Source of the DNA: Schaalia meyeri
Lineage (GTDB): Bacteria; Actinomycetota; Actinomycetes; Actinomycetales; Actinomycetaceae
DNA: 32,000 bases
Direction of reading: 5' to 3'
Assembly (NCBI RefSeq): GCF_900105015.1
Contig: NZ_FNLK01000012.1
Span: 30,001-62,000 of the forward strand
In this document: in pieces, positions 1 through 8,175 of the stretch
How the letters are laid out: every line of letters starts with the position of its first letter
Numbering within the stretch: the stretch's first letter is position 1
Position numbers and translations under genes: made by a program
Notes under the pieces: generated by a model
What the model was told of the DNA's origin: nothing
Databases searched by the model: none
The model's input: the letters and a program-made list of their open reading frames with translations, nothing else

Positions 1-2
1 GT

Positions 3-625
3 AAGCTCTTCTACTTCGTCCGAGAAAAACCTATCGGCTCGCCCGGACAGGTGTGGGGGCGAGACACTGGGCACAGCTGGGAAGCCAAGAGGGAAGAAAG
101 AACTCTTGAGTGCCTCAGCGAGGCAATCAACCGACTCTGCACGTATGCCGAGCACGAGGATCAAAACATCCTACTCTTTCAGGATATGTGGTCAACGAAA
201 ATGAACGCTACCAGCAAGTTCGACGCAGCTACGCCCACATCTACAGTCGTATCAGAGCACACCAGGAGATGCGTCGTATCCTCGAAGCCCCTGCATATAT
301 CGACTCAGAACTCTCCACGAACATCCAGTGCGCTGATTGGATCGCGGCCCTCATAGGCCGCGCATGCGATTACCAGCTGATTCGTAACAGCTCCTACAAA
401 TGGGTGGCGGAGATCTTTTTCAGTTATCTTCGCGGCGATTTCACATACGAATCAACACTCCACTTTCATATGCGCAGTATCGATAACATCCACAACAGCA
501 AGATTCTCGATAGAGCTAGGCCCCTTTTCGACACACTCACTGGCATGTCTCCCGAGAATCTGCAGCGCCTCCAACTGGTGCACGCTCGCGCGAGTGCTCC
601 CAGCCAGATTAGACCGTCATCCTGA
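3..625 (+). pseudogene. DUF3800-like protein, 5' end outside the window, apparent frameshift near 183-190
   Basis: Frame 3 is open from the window edge (KLFYFVREKPIG...LECLSEAINRLCTYAEHEDQNILLFQD). Protein-like sequence then continues in frame 2 (YVVNENERYQQVRRSYAHIYSRI...YIDSELSTNIQCADWIAALIGRA...) to the TGA at 623-625. The DS...QxADxxA pattern resembles the DUF3800 C-terminal motif as I remember it. Restoring one T in caggatatgtgg (gat-tat-gtg-gtc) would join the two frames. GC is about 43-50% in 60-nt spot counts against about 70% nearby. Confidence 0.4.
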
Positions 626-792
626 GCAACAGATGACATTTCCCGGCACACAGAGGCTCTCGCCAGGAGCTGGCGATCGCCCGTCAGGCCCTCACTTTCG
701 CCTGATTGTTCCAGTGCCCGGGCCCGGGGTTCCCGCGTGGAGCCCCGGCCCGGCGCGTATCCTGGGTGGGTAGCAGAGGCAAGGAGGTTCTC

Positions 793-1548
793 ATGCCCGG
801 CAACGTATCCACGCTGGCCGATTGGATAGCGACCTCCCCGTCCACCGTGTTTTTCGGCGGCGCGGGGGTGTCAACCGAGTCGGGCATCCCGGACTTTCGG
901 GGCGCGAACGGCTTTTACTTTCAGGAGCGCGAGATTCCGCTCGAGCAGGTCCTGAGCATCGACTTCTTCGCCCGCCACCCCGAGGCGTACTGGCAGTGGT
1001 TTAACGAGGTGCACCGGCCGGTGGAGCCCAATGGCGCGCACGCTGCGCTGGCCTCGCTCGAGGCAGCCGGGTGCGTGGACGCGGTCGTCACCCAGAACAT
1101 CGACGGCCTGCACCAAAAGGCGGGGTCGCACGCCGTGTGGGAGTTGCACGGCAACTGGGAGCGCCTCGTGTGCACCGGGTGCGGGGATGTCCTGCCGCTG
1201 GGCGAGGCGGTCCGCACCGACACTGATCCCGTGCCCGCCTGCCCCTCGTGCGGCGCACAGATGCGCCCGGACATCGTCATGTACGGAGAGGCCCTGGACC
1301 CGGGCGTCATCGAGGGCGCTGTCGCCGCCATTTCGCGGGCGTCGCTGCTGATCGTGGCGGGCACGTCGCTCGTGGTCTACCCGGCCGCCGGCCTCATCAA
1401 CTACTTCTCCGGCGACCACCTGGTGCTCATGAACGCCACCCCCACTTCCGCCGACGCACACGCCGACCTGATCATCCGAGACCCGGTTGCCCGCATCTTC
1501 GACCGCGTGATGGAGGCCCTGCGCGCAGATGGCGTGGTCTCCACGTAA
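793..1548 (+). CDS. cobB: NAD-dependent protein deacylase, Sir2 family (canonical sirtuin)
   Basis: AAGGAGG RBS at 781-787, 5 nt before the ATG at 793. Motifs seen: GAGVSTESGIPDFRG, TQNIDGLH, ELHG, a Zn ribbon CTGC...CPSC, RPDIVMYGE, GTSLVVYPAA. The 251-aa length is typical of CobB. Confidence 0.93.
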   Translation: MPGNVSTLADWIATSPSTVFFGGAGVSTESGIPDFRGANGFYFQEREIPLEQVLSIDFFARHPEAYWQWFNEVHRPVEPNGAHAALASLEAAGCVDAVVTQNIDGLHQKAGSHAVWELHGNWERLVCTGCGDVLPLGEAVRTDTDPVPACPSCGAQMRPDIVMYGEALDPGVIEGAVAAISRASLLIVAGTSLVVYPAAGLINYFSGDHLVLMNATPTSADAHADLIIRDPVARIFDRVMEALRADGVVST

Positions 1549-1943
1549 GGTCCTGTCGCACGGCCTCGCCGGCGCACGCGCGGATAGCTTAGTTGCCCAT
1601 CCGCATGCTCGCAGTCTATCCGCAAGCAGGTAGGGCACTGCGTCATCGCCCGCTTGCGCGCGCCACCGCGAGCATTCCAGCCTTCACCGCTTCCATCCGC
1701 GCCCTCTCCTCGGGGCTTAATCTGGCTCTTCCTCTCCCAGGTCCCTGCCGTCGCATTCGGCGGGATCAGGTGGGCGAAGAGCCTCCGTTTCTTCTCAGTA
1801 AAGCACTGCGATATTACTCGCACCTGATCACTCGAGATTACGAAGCCAGCGTAGCCGAAAGCCGACGATCCATTGTAGTTCTTATGTGTCTTACTGACAA
1901 ACGCTCCCGCCTCGGCAACTTCGTCAAGATAAGCAACCAGCAT
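1401..1943 (-). pseudogene. Probable remnant: N-terminal DUF3800-like fragment reading through into non-coding and antisense sequence
   Basis: ATG at 1943 is preceded by GAAGGGGG. The first ~65 codons (MLVAYLDEVAEAGAFVSKTHKNYNGSSAFGYAGFVISSDQVRVISQCFTEKKRRLF) resemble the DUF3800 N-terminus (yiDEsG...F.lggv). They lie in a ~50% GC patch (about 1750-2120). The rest of the ORF is Arg/Gly-rich, high GC, and overlaps the 3' end of cobB by 148 nt, so it is unlikely to be genuine coding. Confidence 0.3.
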
Positions 1944-1971
1944 CTGACCCCCTTCGGCTAGATAGACGGAA

Positions 1972-1994
1972 ACCCACGCCGCAAGGGCGTGGGT
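1972..1994 (-). terminator. Candidate terminator hairpin downstream of the SPFH/NADK-like operon
   Basis: Perfect 9-bp stem acccacgcc / ggcgtgggt with a 5-nt loop. On the minus strand it is followed by UUCCGUCUAUCU. It lies about 130 nt after the stop at 2126. Confidence 0.35.
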
Positions 1995-2125
1995 CTTCGA
2001 TGTGGCACTCTGAGCAATCGCCCCGTTACCAACCCCAATGGTACACAGACAGACGAGCTGTGTCCCTCGCGGGCCGCTGGAGCCCCTCGCATTACGAGCA
2101 AAATCTGACTGGAAAGGGATCACCC

Positions 2126-3025
2126 CTACCCCAGGCCCGCCGGATCGACGAGCGCCAGGGCGCGCGGCGCGCGGCAGACCCGCACCGCCTGCCCCCAGGT
2201 GAGGACGAGCCGGTCCGCCTCCATGCCGTCACCAAAGAGCACCAGGGATTCGGAGGCAACAGTGAGGCTCAGCTCCTCCCCCTCCCCCAAGATCCCCTCC
2301 GTGCACTCGATGCCCGTGTGGGGCGAAGGCCAGGCTTCGCGCACGAACCACGCCAGCGACCGGGAGGTCGGTCCTGGCAATTCCCCCATGTTGCGGCCGC
2401 GCCTGAGGGAGGCACCCCAGCCGGTTGCCCCGGTCCCCGTGCTAACGACGAGCCCGGAGGAGGACTGGCGCTCCACGCGAGAGCCGAGGGCCAGCTCGTA
2501 TCGGGCGCTCTGGTGGCTTCGGTGCCCGATGAAGACCTCGTTGAGGGCGGTCAGCGACCGCGAATCATCGACCGTCGCACTCACCGTCGTCAGACGGTCG
2601 ACGCTCAGCCGCCCCTCCTCGTCGAGGCGGCGACAGGCAGCCACCCCCTGATCGGGCGTACAGCGCACGAGCACGCCGGCGTTCGATTCGGGCACGGAAT
2701 TGACCCCGACCACGACCTGGCCGCTGAGGTACTTGGCGACGTTGGCAACCAACCCATCCGGTCCGACAACAACGATGACATCCTCGGGCGCGAAGAGGAA
2801 GCGGCTCAGGGAGTCGCGTTCCACGTCGGCGCTGGCCCACCCCTGCGGGATCCCCGCCCGCACGCGGGCCAGGGCGCTCGCGTGCGACTCATGAGCACGC
2901 GAAACGGATTCGAGGGTGCGCCCGCGCGAGCGCAGGATGAACTCGACCTGGCCGCGCGTGGAGTAGCGGTCCATGAGCTCGTCGTACTCGGTGGGGCGGT
3001 GAACGATGACCGCTCGGGGGCGCAT
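2126..3025 (-). CDS. NAD-kinase-fold (NADK/DAGK-like) protein, divergent paralog
   Basis: Motifs: VIVVVGPDGLVANV (GGDG position reads GPDG), ALNEVFIG (NE motif), SSGLVVSTGTGATGW (Gly-rich motif). The first ~60 aa of the N-terminus contain none of these NADK motifs. The ATG at 3025 is 1 nt from the SPFH stop, with a GGGGGGAG RBS inside the SPFH 3' end. Confidence 0.8.
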   Translation of the reverse strand: MRPRAVIVHRPTEYDELMDRYSTRGQVEFILRSRGRTLESVSRAHESHASALARVRAGIPQGWASADVERDSLSRFLFAPEDVIVVVGPDGLVANVAKYLSGQVVVGVNSVPESNAGVLVRCTPDQGVAACRRLDEEGRLSVDRLTTVSATVDDSRSLTALNEVFIGHRSHQSARYELALGSRVERQSSSGLVVSTGTGATGWGASLRRGRNMGELPGPTSRSLAWFVREAWPSPHTGIECTEGILGEGEELSLTVASESLVLFGDGMEADRLVLTWGQAVRVCRAPRALALVDPAGLG

Positions 3026-3026
3026 G

Positions 3027-4037
3027 CTACTCCCCCCGCTTGGCGGCGCCGGTGAAGGCGGAGAGGACGTCGGTGAGCATGTCGGGGGTGATGGTCAACG
3101 ACCCGATGGAGGGCATGTTGTGGGCCATTTCCTTCAGGGCGAATGCGCGCACCACGTCGGGTCCGGCTTCGGCCAGGGCGCGGACGTAGGCCGCTTCGTT
3201 GGCGATCTTCGCACCGCCGACGCGCTTCCAGTCGTCCTCGTTGGCCTTGGCCAGGGTCTCGATACGCCGCGCCTCCGCTTCGACGGAGATGGCGTCTGCG
3301 GCCGCCTTTTCCTCGGCCTCACGCCGACTGTTATGCCCCTCCTGGTCGACCAGGTCGGCGCGCTTGCGCGCCAGGTCGAGCTTGGATTGCAGCTCATTTT
3401 CCGAAATCTGGGACTCACGCTCGACCGCGAGGGCCCGGCGCTCGTACAGGGCGCGGTCGGCCTCGGCCTGGAGTTGTTCGAGGAGCGGGGCACGCAGGGA
3501 GGATTCGACGCCTTCGTCGGGGCGCAGGGACATCAGGCGCGCGTCGACGACGGCGACGCCGGTGGCGCGCAGCTGATCGTCGCGCTCAAAAGCGAGGGCG
3601 AGGGCGGCGCCGACCTTGTTGAGCGAGCCGGAGATGGCCTCGGACAAAGGCATCGTCCCGATTGCTAAGGCCAGAGCGGAGCAGGCGAGCCGGGTGACCA
3701 GTTCGTCGATCTGCCACAGGCCCTGTGCATCGGTGGAGGCATCGCGCGGATAGAGCCCGAAGTCGTAGTGCCTGGCGGCGGCTTCGGGGTCCTCGATCCG
3801 GTAGGTGATGGACACCTGCGCGTTAACGTTCTGCTGGTCGCCGGAGGGGGTCTGGACGAGGAAGCTGTGGGCGCGGTCCGCGGTGGGGACCTCCGCGAGC
3901 GCGCACCTTCCAGCACGCAGCCAAAAGGACTGCCCGACGCCGGATCGGACGGTACGCCCGGCGCGGATCTGGACGACGTGGTCACCGGCGCCGCCCTGGT
4001 AGCGGATGACGAAGGGGTGGTGATGGAGGGTTCCCAT
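3027..4037 (-). CDS. SPFH/band-7 domain protein with long coiled-coil tail and no N-terminal anchor
   Basis: AAGGAG RBS before the ATG at 4037 (MGTLHHHPFVIRYQ...). An SPFH-like core (VNAQVSITYRIEDPEAAARHY...) is followed by a Glu/Ala/Arg-rich heptad-like region (LLEQLQAEADRALYERRALAVERESQISENELQSKLDLARKRADL...EAEEKAAADAISVEAEARRIETLAKA). No hydrophobic N-terminal segment is visible. Confidence 0.85.
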   Translation of the reverse strand: MGTLHHHPFVIRYQGGAGDHVVQIRAGRTVRSGVGQSFWLRAGRCALAEVPTADRAHSFLVQTPSGDQQNVNAQVSITYRIEDPEAAARHYDFGLYPRDASTDAQGLWQIDELVTRLACSALALAIGTMPLSEAISGSLNKVGAALALAFERDDQLRATGVAVVDARLMSLRPDEGVESSLRAPLLEQLQAEADRALYERRALAVERESQISENELQSKLDLARKRADLVDQEGHNSRREAEEKAAADAISVEAEARRIETLAKANEDDWKRVGGAKIANEAAYVRALAEAGPDVVRAFALKEMAHNMPSIGSLTITPDMLTDVLSAFTGAAKRGE

Positions 4038-4070
4038 GATGATCTCCTTGCTCGGGTGGCATCCCACTTG

Positions 4071-4091
4071 TTTATGTCACATCGACGATAA
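4071..4091. promoter_or_regulatory. Candidate NrtR operator 1 (TTTATGTCACATCGACGATAA)
   Basis: 21-mer with a GT-N7-AC / GTC-N5-GAC core in the divergent SPFH/nrtR intergenic region. It shares 15 of 19 positions with the second box (ATGTCACATCGACGATAAT against ATGTCAAAACGACGTAAAT). Confidence 0.4.
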
Positions 4092-4103
4092 TGCGTCATG
4101 TAT

Positions 4104-4124
4104 TTAATGTCAAAACGACGTAAA
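4104..4124. promoter_or_regulatory. Candidate NrtR operator 2 (TTAATGTCAAAACGACGTAAA)
   Basis: Imperfect 21-bp palindrome: the half sites TTAATGTC and TTTACGTC match at 6 of 8 positions, with a GT-N7-AC core. Its centre is 33 bp from box 1 and it ends 18 nt before the nrtR ATG. Confidence 0.45.
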
Positions 4125-4141
4125 TAGGGTAGGGTGACTCC

Positions 4142-4897
4142 ATGACCTCTCCGCTCACGTTCCCGATCACGGTCGATATCGTCGCCCTGACCGTGATTGA
4201 CCACGCGCTGCACTGTCTCGTCGTGAGGCGAGGCATCGACCCCTACCGAGGACGCCTCGCCCTGCCGGGCGGCTTCGTGCGCGAGGATGAGCAAACCCAC
4301 CAGGCGGCCGCTCGCGAGCTCACGGAGGAAACCGGCATCGCTCCCCCCGGACACCTCGAACAGCTGCGCTCCTACGGCCCCCTGGGCCGAGACCCCCGGG
4401 GTCCCATCCTCTCGGTCGCCTACCTGCTCCTCGCCCCTTCCTTTTCCCCCGCGCGCGCGGGAGGTGACGCCTCCGGCGCGCTCTGGCACCCCGTCGACGC
4501 GCTCCTGACACCCTCCTCGCCCCTCGCCTTTGACCACGCGGCCATCCTCGCCGACGGCGTCGAACGGGCGCGCTCCAAGATCGAATACTCCCCGCTGGCC
4601 ACGTCGTTTTGCGGTCCCGAATTCACAATCACACAGCTTCGCACCACCTACGAAGCGATCTGGGGTTCCCCCCTGGACCCGCGTAACTTCCACCGCAAGG
4701 CAACCAAGACCGCGTCCTTTATCGAAGCGACCGGGGAAACGATCCGCGAGGGGGCCGGGCGCCCAGCTGCCCTGTACCGCCTGGCCCCCGGCGTCGATGA
4801 AACAGCCTTCGTCTTGGATCCACCCCTGCGCCGACCGGCCAGCCCAGCCCCGGCCTCGCAGGAAAAGGGCGCTCCCCCACCGAGTGCGCAACAATAG
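4142..4897 (+). CDS. nrtR: NrtR-family Nudix-related transcriptional regulator (Nudix domain plus C-terminal winged helix)
   Basis: Complete Nudix box GFVREDEQTHQAAARELTEETGI. The C-terminal segment FTITQLRTTYEAIWGSPLDPRNFHRK is typical of the NrtR wHTH domain. It sits immediately upstream of nadE. Confidence 0.85.
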   Translation: MTSPLTFPITVDIVALTVIDHALHCLVVRRGIDPYRGRLALPGGFVREDEQTHQAAARELTEETGIAPPGHLEQLRSYGPLGRDPRGPILSVAYLLLAPSFSPARAGGDASGALWHPVDALLTPSSPLAFDHAAILADGVERARSKIEYSPLATSFCGPEFTITQLRTTYEAIWGSPLDPRNFHRKATKTASFIEATGETIREGAGRPAALYRLAPGVDETAFVLDPPLRRPASPAPASQEKGAPPPSAQQ

Positions 4898-4918
4898 GGC
4901 CACAACCGAAGGAGAACC

Positions 4919-7024
<2,106 letters not shown>

Positions 7025-7115
7025 CCCGTCCCGGACGGCATCGAGGGGCAACTGGGTAAGACTGTTCACATATGCTGACGCGCCAGAAAACTACCGCTAG
7101 GGTTATTTCCTGTAG

Positions 7116-7134
7116 TTAGGTAAACCTACCTTTC
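7116..7134. promoter_or_regulatory. DtxR/IdeR-like iron box candidate
   Basis: TTAGGTAAACCTACCTTTC matches the 19-bp consensus TTAGGTTAGCCTAACCTAA at 13 of 19 positions. The core is an inverted repeat TAGGT-AA-ACCTA. It lies about 50 nt upstream of the siderophore-type SBP start. Confidence 0.4.
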
Positions 7135-7182
7135 TATCTGCCAACTTCAATGCAGTTTTCCACAGTTCTTACGGAGAAATTG

Positions 7183-8175
7183 ATGTCTCGTACGACCACT
7201 TCCCTGGCCACCATTGCCACCATCGCCGCCCTCGGCCTCGCCGCCTGCTCCTCCGACACTCAGCCTTCTGCCGCCGCGTCAACCGAGCCCACCCAGGCCT
7301 CGTCGGTGTCGATCGAATCAAACGACGGTAACGTGGAGGTCAAACTGCCCGTCACCCGCGCGGCATCGCTGGACAACCGCACCTTCGAGGTCCTCCAGCA
7401 GTGGGGGGTGCCGCTCGTCGCGGCGCCCAAGAAGCTGATCCCCAGCACGATCACCGCCTTTAACGGCGAGGATGTGGCCGACGTGGGCTTACACCGCGAC
7501 CCCAACCTGGAGGCCCTGGTCGCCGCCGAACCCGATCTGATCATCTCGGGCCAGCGCTTCACCAAATACGATTCGCAGATCAAGGAGCTCGCTCCCGACG
7601 TTCCGATGATCAACCTGGAGCCCCGCAAAGATCGCCCCTTCAACGAAGAACTCATCCGCCAGGTCACCGACCTGGGTAAGGTCTTTAACAAACAGACTGA
7701 GGCCCAGAAGCTGGTTGACGACTTCAACGCGTCGATTGAGCGCGCTAAGAAGGCCTACGACGGCTCGTCGACCGTCATGGCGGTCGACGTTTCCGGCGGG
7801 AACATCGGCTACGTCGCCCCCTCGAAGGGACGCACGTGGGGGCCCATCTTCGACATCCTGGGCCTGAAGCCCGCGCTTGAGGTTGAGGGCGCGACCGACT
7901 CACACACCGGCGACGACATCTCGGTCGAGGCCATCGCCGAGGCCAACCCCGCCTGGATCTTCGTCCTGGACCGCGACGCAGCCATCACCAAGGACGGGTC
8001 GAACACCCCCGCCGAGACCGTCATCTCGGGCAACGCCGTGCTGAGCAATGTCACCGCCCTACAGAAGAACCAGGTCGTGTACGCGCCGAACGACACCTAC
8101 ACCAACGAGTCGATCATCACCTACACGGAGATCTTCAACTCGATCGCAGATTCCTTCGAAAACGCGAAGAAGTGA
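7183..8175 (+). CDS. Iron-siderophore type ABC transporter substrate-binding lipoprotein
   Basis: GGAGA RBS. Signal peptide with a lipobox (IAALGLAACSSD). Class III periplasmic-binding-protein pattern similar to YclQ/FatB/CeuE. It is followed by FecCD permeases. Confidence 0.88.
   Translation: MSRTTTSLATIATIAALGLAACSSDTQPSAAASTEPTQASSVSIESNDGNVEVKLPVTRAASLDNRTFEVLQQWGVPLVAAPKKLIPSTITAFNGEDVADVGLHRDPNLEALVAAEPDLIISGQRFTKYDSQIKELAPDVPMINLEPRKDRPFNEELIRQVTDLGKVFNKQTEAQKLVDDFNASIERAKKAYDGSSTVMAVDVSGGNIGYVAPSKGRTWGPIFDILGLKPALEVEGATDSHTGDDISVEAIAEANPAWIFVLDRDAAITKDGSNTPAETVISGNAVLSNVTALQKNQVVYAPNDTYTNESIITYTEIFNSIADSFENAKK

Follow-up and report, generated by a model that had tools for sequence, protein, structure and literature searches.

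An operon of the NrtR regulon pairs an anchor-less SPFH protein with a predicted NADK2-type NAD(H) kinase

A locus of Schaalia meyeri raises the question of why a gene for an SPFH/Band_7 protein should be joined, stop codon almost to start codon, to a gene for a protein with the fold of a nicotinamide adenine dinucleotide (NAD) kinase, opposite the gene for an NrtR-type NAD regulator. The locus lies in a stretch of 32,000 nucleotides (nt) of contig NZ_FNLK01000012.1 (positions 30,001 to 62,000; hereafter the window, in whose numbering coordinates are given unless another locus is named), which is an exact match to the reverse strand of the 2.03-Mb chromosome CP066065.1. A preliminary description of the sequence had proposed a dedicated two-gene module, possibly under ADP-ribose or NAD control, for which no described function was known to it. 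The pair is identified here as nrtX (3027 to 4037, minus strand; 336 residues) and nrtY (2126 to 3025, minus strand; 299 residues), and the explanation judged somewhat better than an even chance is that this operon of the NrtR regulon supplies an ADP-ribose-induced auxiliary NAD(H) kinase which works with an SPFH scaffold. Comparative evidence supports the gene identities, the predicted fold, the residue conservation, the pairing, the apparent coupling and the putative operator and promoter layout, and is strong for the regulation and the pairing; enzyme activity and a complex between the two proteins are inferred.

The manner in which the two genes adjoin was read from the sequence and agrees with the preliminary description. 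The nrtX ATG, at 4037, has a Shine-Dalgarno sequence, AAGGAG, 6 nt before it. At the translational-coupling junction (3023 to 3037, minus strand) the letters run AAGCGGGGGGAG-TAG-C-ATG: the nrtX TAG occupies 3029 to 3027, a single spacer base stands at 3026, the nrtY ATG occupies 3025 to 3023, and the ribosome-binding site of nrtY, GGGGGGAG at 3037 to 3030, lies within the last codons of nrtX.

The pair is not wholly new, because it was named in 2008. Table 1 of Rodionov et al. (2008, NAR 36:2047, PMC2330246) records the arrangements 'nrtR2<#>nrtX-nrtY' in Kineococcus and Frankia, '#nrtR2; #nrtX-nrtY' in Streptomyces, 'nrtR<#>nrtX-nrtY' in Proteus mirabilis and '#nrtX-nrtY' in Hahella, each with the pathway given as '?', and the main text of that paper offers neither a protein identity nor a function for nrtX or nrtY. 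These layouts were reproduced in three of the named groups. Kineococcus endophyticus has an NrtR gene divergent from a Band_7 gene, which is followed by the gene for a 291-residue protein 55% identical to the window kinase; Proteus mirabilis (locus L088) has NrtR at 2094 to 2936 (minus strand), the SPFH gene at 2960 to 3976 (plus strand) and the kinase gene at 3980 to 4927 (plus strand), with GTC-N5-GAC boxes between; and the Streptomyces loci have operators 5' of the pair and no adjacent nrtR, as in the 2008 table. The window shares with these hosts the nrtR<#>nrtX-nrtY layout, the NrtR sites in the divergent region and the pairing of an SPFH gene with an NADK-like gene, and its two genes are therefore equated with the nrtX (SPFH) and nrtY (kinase) of that study. 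In the literature searched, nrtX and nrtY appeared as names of these genes only in the 2008 paper and no functional study was found; no paper joined NrtR with SPFH or band 7, nor SPFH with NAD kinase, and queries combining ATP-NAD kinase with band 7, stomatin, flotillin or prohibitin yielded nothing relevant among the top results. The claim that no function had been described thus stood, but the pair itself was already on record, with its function marked '?'. What is new here is the combination of an anchor-less, cage-type SPFH protein with a kinase of NADK2 type, the breadth of at least 559 species, the coupling statistics and an operator design that would occlude the promoter.

The distribution of the pair was assessed through several searches of different depth. 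A word-indexed homology search returned approximately 8,000 NrtY-related proteins, an exhaustive search of 1.84 billion cluster representatives returned 1,898 NrtY relatives, and a pattern scan in which each GTDB species was represented by one genome confirmed at least 559 loci, of which 80 were retained for survey. The genome scan used a 13-sequence alignment subset, with Proteobacteria sampled separately via a plasmid collection, and the 80-locus survey is therefore biased towards Actinomycetota. Custom hidden Markov models for NrtX, NrtY and NrtR were run over the six-frame open reading frames (ORFs) of every locus. The survey spans the orders Actinomycetales, Micrococcales, Propionibacteriales, Streptomycetales, Micromonosporales, Streptosporangiales, Geodermatophilales, Jiangellales, Kineosporiales and Acidimicrobiales, together with one metagenome-assembled genome (MAG) labelled Acidobacteria, and the loci closest to the window are those of Actinomyces species.

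Across this set, nrtX lies directly 5' of nrtY in 79 of the 80 loci, the single exception (L065) being a contig that ends 170 nt before the kinase gene. The distance from nrtX stop to nrtY start is at most 10 nt in 74 of 82 loci and the genes overlap in 41, the usual overlap being ATGA or GTGA; a frameshift or a start codon miscalled by the heuristic probably accounts for each of the few large gaps. The same order, SPFH gene then kinase gene, was found in all six proteobacterial loci that were opened (Proteus, Rhizobium, Moraxella, Roseomonas, Cupriavidus and Methylomonas, most of them on plasmids), with a divergent NrtR-type regulator in five, and a tblastn search of the plasmid collection located the kinase in 58 records, 42 of them from Rhizobium and the others from Proteus, Providencia, Moraxella, Cupriavidus, Methylomonas, Roseomonas, Ralstonia, Treponema, Streptomyces and Kitasatospora. 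The pairing is not a matter of chance and is conserved across phyla, and the survey of neighbourhoods that the preliminary description had called for, with or without nrtR nearby, bears out its proposal of a dedicated module. All-against-all clustering of the flanking ORFs from 84 loci yielded no further conserved neighbour, only within-genus synteny, and the nrtX-nrtY unit is therefore self-contained. Two neighbours of the window, the Sir2/CobB deacylase gene near nrtY (ending at 1548) and the NAD synthetase gene nadE, were considered as general partners and rejected on this clustering, as they are specific to the window's lineage.

Individual loci carry neighbours of some interest in their own right. 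In Moraxella osloensis pNP7-1 (L090, 4927 to 6841) the module stands beside tetR(H)-tet(H) with an IS1-like element nearby, and in Proteus mirabilis (L088, 5635 to 6828) the nrtR-nrtX-nrtY module is immediately beside tet(J), which suggests that it travels with resistance DNA in some Gammaproteobacteria. An Arr-type rifampin ADP-ribosyltransferase gene adjoins nrtR in Pseudarthrobacter oxydans (L006, 5641 to 6066), a 355-residue NUDIX hydrolase is encoded after nrtY in Methylomonas (L093, 4633 to 5697), and a weak Nudix-like ORF follows nrtY in four Streptomyces loci (L067, L082, L084 and L085). These NAD- or ADP-ribose-related neighbours are lineage-specific, and none is kept across orders.

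The product of the second gene had been described as a divergent protein of NAD-kinase fold, with GPDG in place of GGDG. The motifs on which that description rested were located at residues 88 to 91 (GPDG), 160 to 167 (ALNEVFIG, with N162-E163) and 189 to 203 (SSGLVVSTGTGATGW), and SSG (189 to 191), TGATGW (198 to 203), VRE (228 to 230) and DG (266 to 267) were identified in addition. The suggested search with Band_7 and NAD_kinase profiles succeeded for NrtX, as set out below, but not for NrtY, which has no Pfam match at E ≤0.01 and scores 16 to 32 bits on the NCBIfam NadK equivalogs against cutoffs above 200 (best 32.4 bits against a cutoff of 316), outside canonical NadK membership. Divergence from the canonical enzymes was therefore upheld, but the protein appears to be specifically of NADK2/NADK3 type rather than merely divergent. 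Its best phmmer match among PDB sequences is human mitochondrial NADK2 (9.7e-8; alignment from residue 4), and a profile of the NrtY family gives 84 bits on NADK2 and at most 43 on any canonical NadK. An AlphaFold model made with a 39-sequence alignment has a mean predicted local distance difference test score (pLDDT) of 96.3 and a predicted template-modelling (TM) score of 0.91, and its best Foldseek matches are NADK2 structures at TM 0.70 to 0.74 and E of about 1e-18 (top match 0.74, 2e-18). Bacterial NadKs rank behind these at TM of about 0.6, the top 50 matches are all NAD kinases, and the model shows both domains of the NADK fold, its first glycine-rich loop bearing the catalytic Asp. Database annotators name the protein 'sugar kinase', 'hypothetical protein' or 'ATP-NAD kinase PpnK-type'.

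Residue comparisons point the same way. The C5orf33/NADK2 and NADK3 types are marked by Ser for Asp-189, Trp (Ala in NADK3) for Tyr-202 and a motif 1 of PX-GXN(T/S)DP (Ohashi et al. 2012; Mycobacterium tuberculosis Ppnk numbering), and NrtY has the corresponding S190 and W203 and a family consensus PVxGVNPDP, of which the window copy is degenerate (VVVGVNSVP). With NADK2 and plant NADK3 it thus has in common an N-terminal helical region, the Ser and Trp substitutions, motif 1 in the form PVxGVN(P/T/S)DP, the (V/I)REP motif, the catalytic Asp and the cationic residue at the diphosphate. With canonical NadK/PpnK it shares the two-domain fold, the NE/D motif and the glycine-rich TGxT, but it falls below every equivalog cutoff, carries Ser and Trp where those enzymes have Asp and Tyr, is plasmid-borne and coexists with NadK in Proteus; its signature triad is Ser/Thr/Trp and, although NE is present, G(Q/P/R)DG stands for GGDG, which is not the canonical NadK motif set. 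The residues of NADK2 named by Du et al. (2022) were mapped with a chain-to-residue offset of 51, checked on D161, S306, W319 and H191. Catalytic D161 corresponds to D90 of NrtY, diphosphate-binding K76 to R10, S306 to S190 and nicotinamide-stacking W319 to W203, and adenine-stacking H191 aligns with V118, so that the adenine contact is not conserved in type. R10, G88, D90 and G91 are unchanged in 84 of 84 loci, and N162, S189, S190, G191, T201, W203, R229, E230, D266 and G267 in all 81 aligned sequences. This invariance of catalytic, nicotinamide and diphosphate residues speaks for a catalytically active enzyme with a complete nicotinamide dinucleotide as its ligand.

The first 60 or so residues of NrtY had been noted as containing none of the NADK motifs. 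They do lack the classical motifs, but they are not foreign to the fold: residues 1 to 60 are modelled at high confidence as strand 1 and three helices and align with the N-terminus of NADK2, and a motif-less N-terminus would thus be included in the assignment, from sequence and model, of NrtY to the NADK2/NADK3 type. There are also differences from NADK2. Identity is 17-19%, NrtY has G(Q/P/R)DG for GGDG and Val for His191, it is a bacterial protein that is SPFH-coupled and NrtR-regulated, and its activity is a prediction; the region after W203, which may correspond to the animal-specific dimerisation insert (22-47 residues), is approximately 25 residues shorter in the alignment than in NADK2.

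The partner, NrtX, matches Pfam Band_7 with an E value of 1.4e-11 (45.2 bits, gathering cutoff 23.6), and the anchor-less 336-residue SPFH protein with a Glu/Ala/Arg-rich coiled-coil tail that had been described is recognisable in its AF2 model (pLDDT 82). Strands occupy residues 3 to 81, helices and a strand 84 to 173, and a single helix of some 115 residues 175 to 290; the C-terminal part is poorly modelled, with pLDDT below 50 beyond residue 308. In the family alignment the SPFH domain is followed by the strongly conserved helical LQAEADRAxYERRALAVERExxISENEL... and then by a conserved C-terminal LPxIGxLTITPD. Foldseek matches of the model include HflK/C, erlin1/2, prohibitin, stomatin, QmcA-YbbJ, flotillin and the major vault protein, with E values down to 4.5e-12; differences in the placement of the long helix make the root-mean-square deviations large, and the likeness is to an architecture, as modelled, and not to any particular assembly. 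That architecture of core, long coiled-coil helix and C-terminal segment is the one found in cage-forming SPFH members. No N-terminal hydrophobic 19-mer was found in the window NrtX, in 83 actinobacterial orthologs or in five proteobacterial orthologs, the hydrophobicity maxima of these proteins falling inside the SPFH domain (the top 19-residue stretch of the window protein is at residue 113), and NrtX accordingly lacks the N-terminal transmembrane helix or hydrophobic hairpin of classical membrane SPFH proteins. There is likewise no NfeD gene next to nrtX-nrtY in the window, as had been observed, the neighbours encoding NrtY, NrtR, NadE and Sir2. Oligomerisation of NrtX, its possible membrane association and its contact with NrtY would be expected from the behaviour of the family and from the conserved translational coupling.

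The regulator (nrtR, 4142 to 4897, plus strand) is encoded divergently across a spacer of 104 bp. Its Pfam NUDIX (6.6e-16) and NrtR_WHD (1.4e-17) domains are those of the NrtR family, its score on the NCBIfam NrtR model (105 bits) is under the equivalog cutoff, and a complete Nudix box, Gx5Ex7REUxEExGU, is present at residues 44 to 66 (4271 to 4339). The first four intergenic regions inspected each held two palindromes, TTATCGTC-N5-GACGATAA, at matching positions, and a matrix was built from 73 such sites. Its consensus, TTATCGTCAAnTTGACGATAA, is palindromic over 21 bp and has the GT-N7-AC core typical of most NrtR groups (Rodionov et al. 2008, PMC2330246), as expected for NrtR sites. In the window the nrtX-proximal box 1 lies at 4071 to 4091 (on the nrtX strand TTATCGTCGATGTGACATAAA; 21.2 bits) and the nrtR-proximal box 2 at 4104 to 4124 (on the nrtX strand TTTACGTCGTTTTGACATTAA; 14.6 bits), confirming the two operator-like boxes that had been noticed between the divergent genes. 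Since the matrix was trained on the same loci, these scores are partly circular, but three controls are independent of that training: a single site of at least 10 bits occurred in 772,852 background positions of the surveyed loci, at the nrtR end of the Jonesia locus; only the two boxes reach 5 bits or more in the 32-kb window; and the box starts are 33 nt apart in the window and 33-34 nt apart in 45 of 65 two-box loci. The Jonesia site (Jonesia quinghaiensis L015, 3093 to 3113; 28.6 bits) is in itself unusual, as no other strong NrtR-type box of the surveyed loci falls anywhere but directly 5' of nrtX; it stands at the start of the nrtR ORF, approximately 650 nt from the usual pair, and may be a third operator or reflect a mis-assigned nrtR start.

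A divergent nrtR was present in 53 of 75 assessable upstream regions. Boxes of at least 12 bits numbered two in 65 of these regions, one in 2 and none in 8, and 14 of the 22 loci that lack a local nrtR have at least one, such that the operators precede the pair even where the regulator is encoded elsewhere, which favours the control by ADP-ribose or NAD that had been thought possible. A consensus promoter scan placed a -35 element, TTGACA, at 4113 to 4108 in the upstream box (box 2) and a -10 element, TATCGT, at 4090 to 4085 in the downstream box (box 1), with a 17-nt spacer, and NrtR bound at both would therefore cover the nrtX promoter. On the other side, nadE (4919 to 7024, plus strand) begins 21 nt 3' of nrtR and encodes a glutamine-dependent NAD synthetase (NCBIfam NAD(+) synthase, 1012 bits against a cutoff of 473). 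The nrtR-nadE order is the same in related strains, nadE is probably co-transcribed with nrtR, and it would therefore be controlled from the same operator region. ADP-ribose released two tested NrtR proteins from DNA (Rodionov et al. 2008, PMC2330246), and by analogy the same response is inferred for the NrtR of this clade, including that of the window.

A possible explanation that joins these observations begins with NrtR seated on the two 21-bp palindromes over the nrtX -35 and -10 elements, where it would also face nrtR-nadE. As NAD is broken down, ADP-ribose would accumulate and NrtR would leave the DNA, allowing nrtR-nadE and nrtX-nrtY to be transcribed divergently, the former giving more NAD synthetase and the latter giving NrtX and NrtY in a fixed ratio through translational coupling. 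NrtY would be an active kinase of NADK2/NADK3 type, most likely converting NAD+ and/or NADH to the phosphorylated NADP(H), and would serve as an auxiliary enzyme, perhaps of high affinity, which sustains the NADP(H) pool under NAD scarcity beside the housekeeping NadK. NrtX would most likely form a ring or cage and so act as scaffold, enclosure or gate for NrtY, by analogy with the relation of HflK/C to FtsH, of QmcA to its NfeD partner and of the vault to its cargo.

Several observations weigh against this explanation or narrow it. The Nudix box is intact in 55 of 59 NrtR proteins adjacent to nrtX-nrtY, and the NrtR of this clade may hydrolyse its ligand; many NrtR proteins have lost the Nudix signature (Rodionov et al. 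2008, PMC2330246). The eight loci with neither an adjacent nrtR nor boxes (L037, L050, L058, L060, L062, L063, L073 and L076), from Aeromicrobium, Hamadaea, Allorhizocola, Luedemannella, Pseudolysinimonas and an Actinomycetota MAG, mean that NrtR control is not universal, and the coupled pair can evidently come under other control. Within NrtY the second position of GGDG is Q in 75 loci, P in 8 and R in 1 of the 84, and never Gly, and Val stands in place of the adenine-stacking NADK2 residue His191; given these two changes, the preference of NrtY for donor and acceptor may differ from that of NADK2. A low Michaelis constant (Km) for NrtY would be borrowed from NADK2 by analogy only, the Km of NADK2 for NAD being 0.022 mM against 1.07 mM for cytosolic NADK. 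Nor does gene fusion lend any support to contact between the two proteins. Three apparent SPFH-kinase fusions, P0269 (654 residues), P0288 (574 residues) and P0372 (583 residues), were considered as Rosetta-stone evidence and rejected as assembly or frameshift artefacts. Pfam scans flagged P0269 and P0288 as Band_7 plus NADK-like and gave no match for P0372, and all three are singletons, with out-of-frame Arg/Gly/Pro-rich stretches in P0269 and neither the NrtX tail nor the first NrtY strand in P0288, so that they yield no Rosetta-stone support.

In the alternative that fares best, though it is an unlikely one, NrtY phosphorylates another adenine nucleotide of NAD turnover (ADP-ribose, O-acetyl-ADP-ribose or nicotinate adenine dinucleotide) and the module serves detoxification or recycling and not NADP synthesis. 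An operon under an ADP-ribose-sensing type of regulator would suit such a role, as would a Sir2 deacylase, a source of ADP-ribose derivatives, nearby in the window, the Nudix hydrolase genes after nrtY in Methylomonas and some Streptomyces, the change of GGDG to GQDG or GPDG and the loss of the adenine-stacking His of NADK2 to Val. However, neither the Sir2 nor the Nudix neighbours recur from lineage to lineage, and the invariant nicotinamide-stacking Trp and diphosphate-binding cationic residue point to a complete dinucleotide as the substrate. NADK2 itself, a dimer that accepts polyphosphate, has no activity on ADP-ribose or nicotinate adenine dinucleotide.

Less probable still is that the pair is an accessory stress or conflict device, for instance a countermeasure to NAD-depleting toxins or phage-defence effectors, spread horizontally and standing outside core NAD homeostasis. 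Its mobility is suggestive: the 58 plasmid or chromid records come from Alpha-, Beta- and Gammaproteobacteria, Streptomyces and others such as Treponema, 21 of the plasmids are conjugative, the module stands beside tet(H) or tet(J) in Moraxella and Proteus, its distribution is patchy and its induction signal would be NAD cleavage. Against this are set its vertical conservation across whole actinobacterial orders and a control region shared in the window with nrtR-nadE, which includes a core NAD gene. Anti-phage defence in particular was considered and rejected, as PADLOC gave no match for either NrtX or NrtY and tblastn found no copy in 50,697 phage records. The conflict reading also overlaps the proposal of an auxiliary kinase with a scaffold and does not exclude it.

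A non-catalytic NrtY, binding NAD(P) as a sensor that controls the assembly or function of an effector NrtX, is improbable. Such a role would accommodate a GGDG motif broken in every member and the very low NadK-model scores, but all 84 loci keep the catalytic Asp and the glycines on either side of it, and NE, SSG, TGxTGW and DG do not vary either, which is the pattern expected from selection on catalysis. That nrtY merely encodes the host's housekeeping NAD kinase and owes its SPFH neighbour to chance is scarcely credible even for an organism with a genome of only about 2.03 Mb, given the adjacency in 79 of 80 genomes and all six proteobacterial loci, NCBIfam NadK scores of 16-32 bits against cutoffs above 200, the presence of the module on plasmids in Rhizobium, Moraxella and Methylomonas, and its coexistence in the 4.08-Mb Proteus mirabilis chromosome NZ_OL790811.1 with a canonical nadK (at 2.72 Mb, 74% identical to Escherichia coli NadK; nrtY at 3.26 Mb), by which chance adjacency of a housekeeping gene is effectively excluded as a general explanation.

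The preferred reading, an auxiliary kinase working with an SPFH scaffold, places NrtX beside the known SPFH-client systems (HflK/C-FtsH, QmcA-YbbJ, stomatin-NfeD and flotillin). It has their order of parts, with SPFH1/2, a long coiled-coil helix and a C-terminal segment, and its operon, like the SPFH-NfeD pairs, joins an SPFH gene to the gene of a dedicated partner. It differs in having no transmembrane anchor or hairpin, in a partner that is a predicted soluble nucleotide kinase and not a membrane protease or NfeD protein, in standing first in its operon, and in the control of the whole operon by a metabolite-sensing repressor. The major vault protein, a soluble, anchor-less cage with an SPFH-like shoulder and a long helix, is among the fold matches of NrtX, and its solved entries include, according to their titles, complexes of PARP4 and ADP-ribose; the match, however, is a partial one to a far larger protein (target-normalised TM of about 0.2), and speaks for neither common descent nor a closed NrtX shell. 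A bolder form of the proposal can be entertained only tentatively, namely that NrtX is a vault-like SPFH cage, soluble or peripherally membrane-attached, which encloses or gates a high-affinity NAD(H) kinase, possibly polyphosphate-using. This would make the pair an ADP-ribose-induced, compartmentalised NADP(H) device, the first case of a metabolic enzyme as client of an SPFH cage, and NrtY a long-missing prokaryotic relative of the NADK2/NADK3 lineage.

Some features of the surrounding sequence were recorded along the way. The window nadE contains a perfect 24-nt tandem duplication at 5813 to 5860, which encodes FADNAARV twice; as a result NadE has 701 residues in the window and in CP066065.1, compared with 693 in strain CP012072.1 and in two metagenome contigs, an in-frame strain polymorphism between the two domains of the enzyme. 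On the 3' side of nrtY, the 577 bp from 1549 to 2125 contain no called gene in four related assemblies and have a GC content of 0.56-0.58, against approximately 0.69 in the flanks; a promoter-like site (1900 to 1872, minus strand) and a 240-residue ORF with no Pfam match (1401 to 2123, minus strand) occur there, and the stretch could represent either the remnant of a gene or an element that has escaped annotation. The possibility of a structured RNA, here or in the region of the operon, was considered and rejected, as an Rfam scan of positions 1 to 8000 gave no match. Positions 1 to 700, also of low GC content (0.51-0.53), coincide with two called genes of CP066065.1 (118 and 228 residues, with no Pfam match); strain CP012072.1 lacks the ORFs of this segment in the interval that separates ackA from the Sir2 gene (L002, 10401 to 11356, compared with L001), and it looks like a strain-specific insertion.

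In the papers retrieved, bacteria are said to make NADP by a single NAD kinase. The NrtY family would be a second kinase, of NADK2 type, found in 559 or more species and on numerous plasmids, and wired to an ADP-ribose-sensing regulator of NAD metabolism, encoded by genes that were flagged as of unknown function in 2008 and have apparently remained uncharacterised since. How an SPFH protein acts as cage or scaffold for its client is an open question that would become tractable here, where the predicted client is a soluble, easily assayed enzyme and the scaffold is anchor-less. Proteus, Streptomyces, Arthrobacter and Rhizobium, all of them hosts of the pair, are readily handled in the laboratory. 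If NrtY proves to be a relative of mitochondrial NADK2, the family would also have a bearing on the origin of that enzyme.

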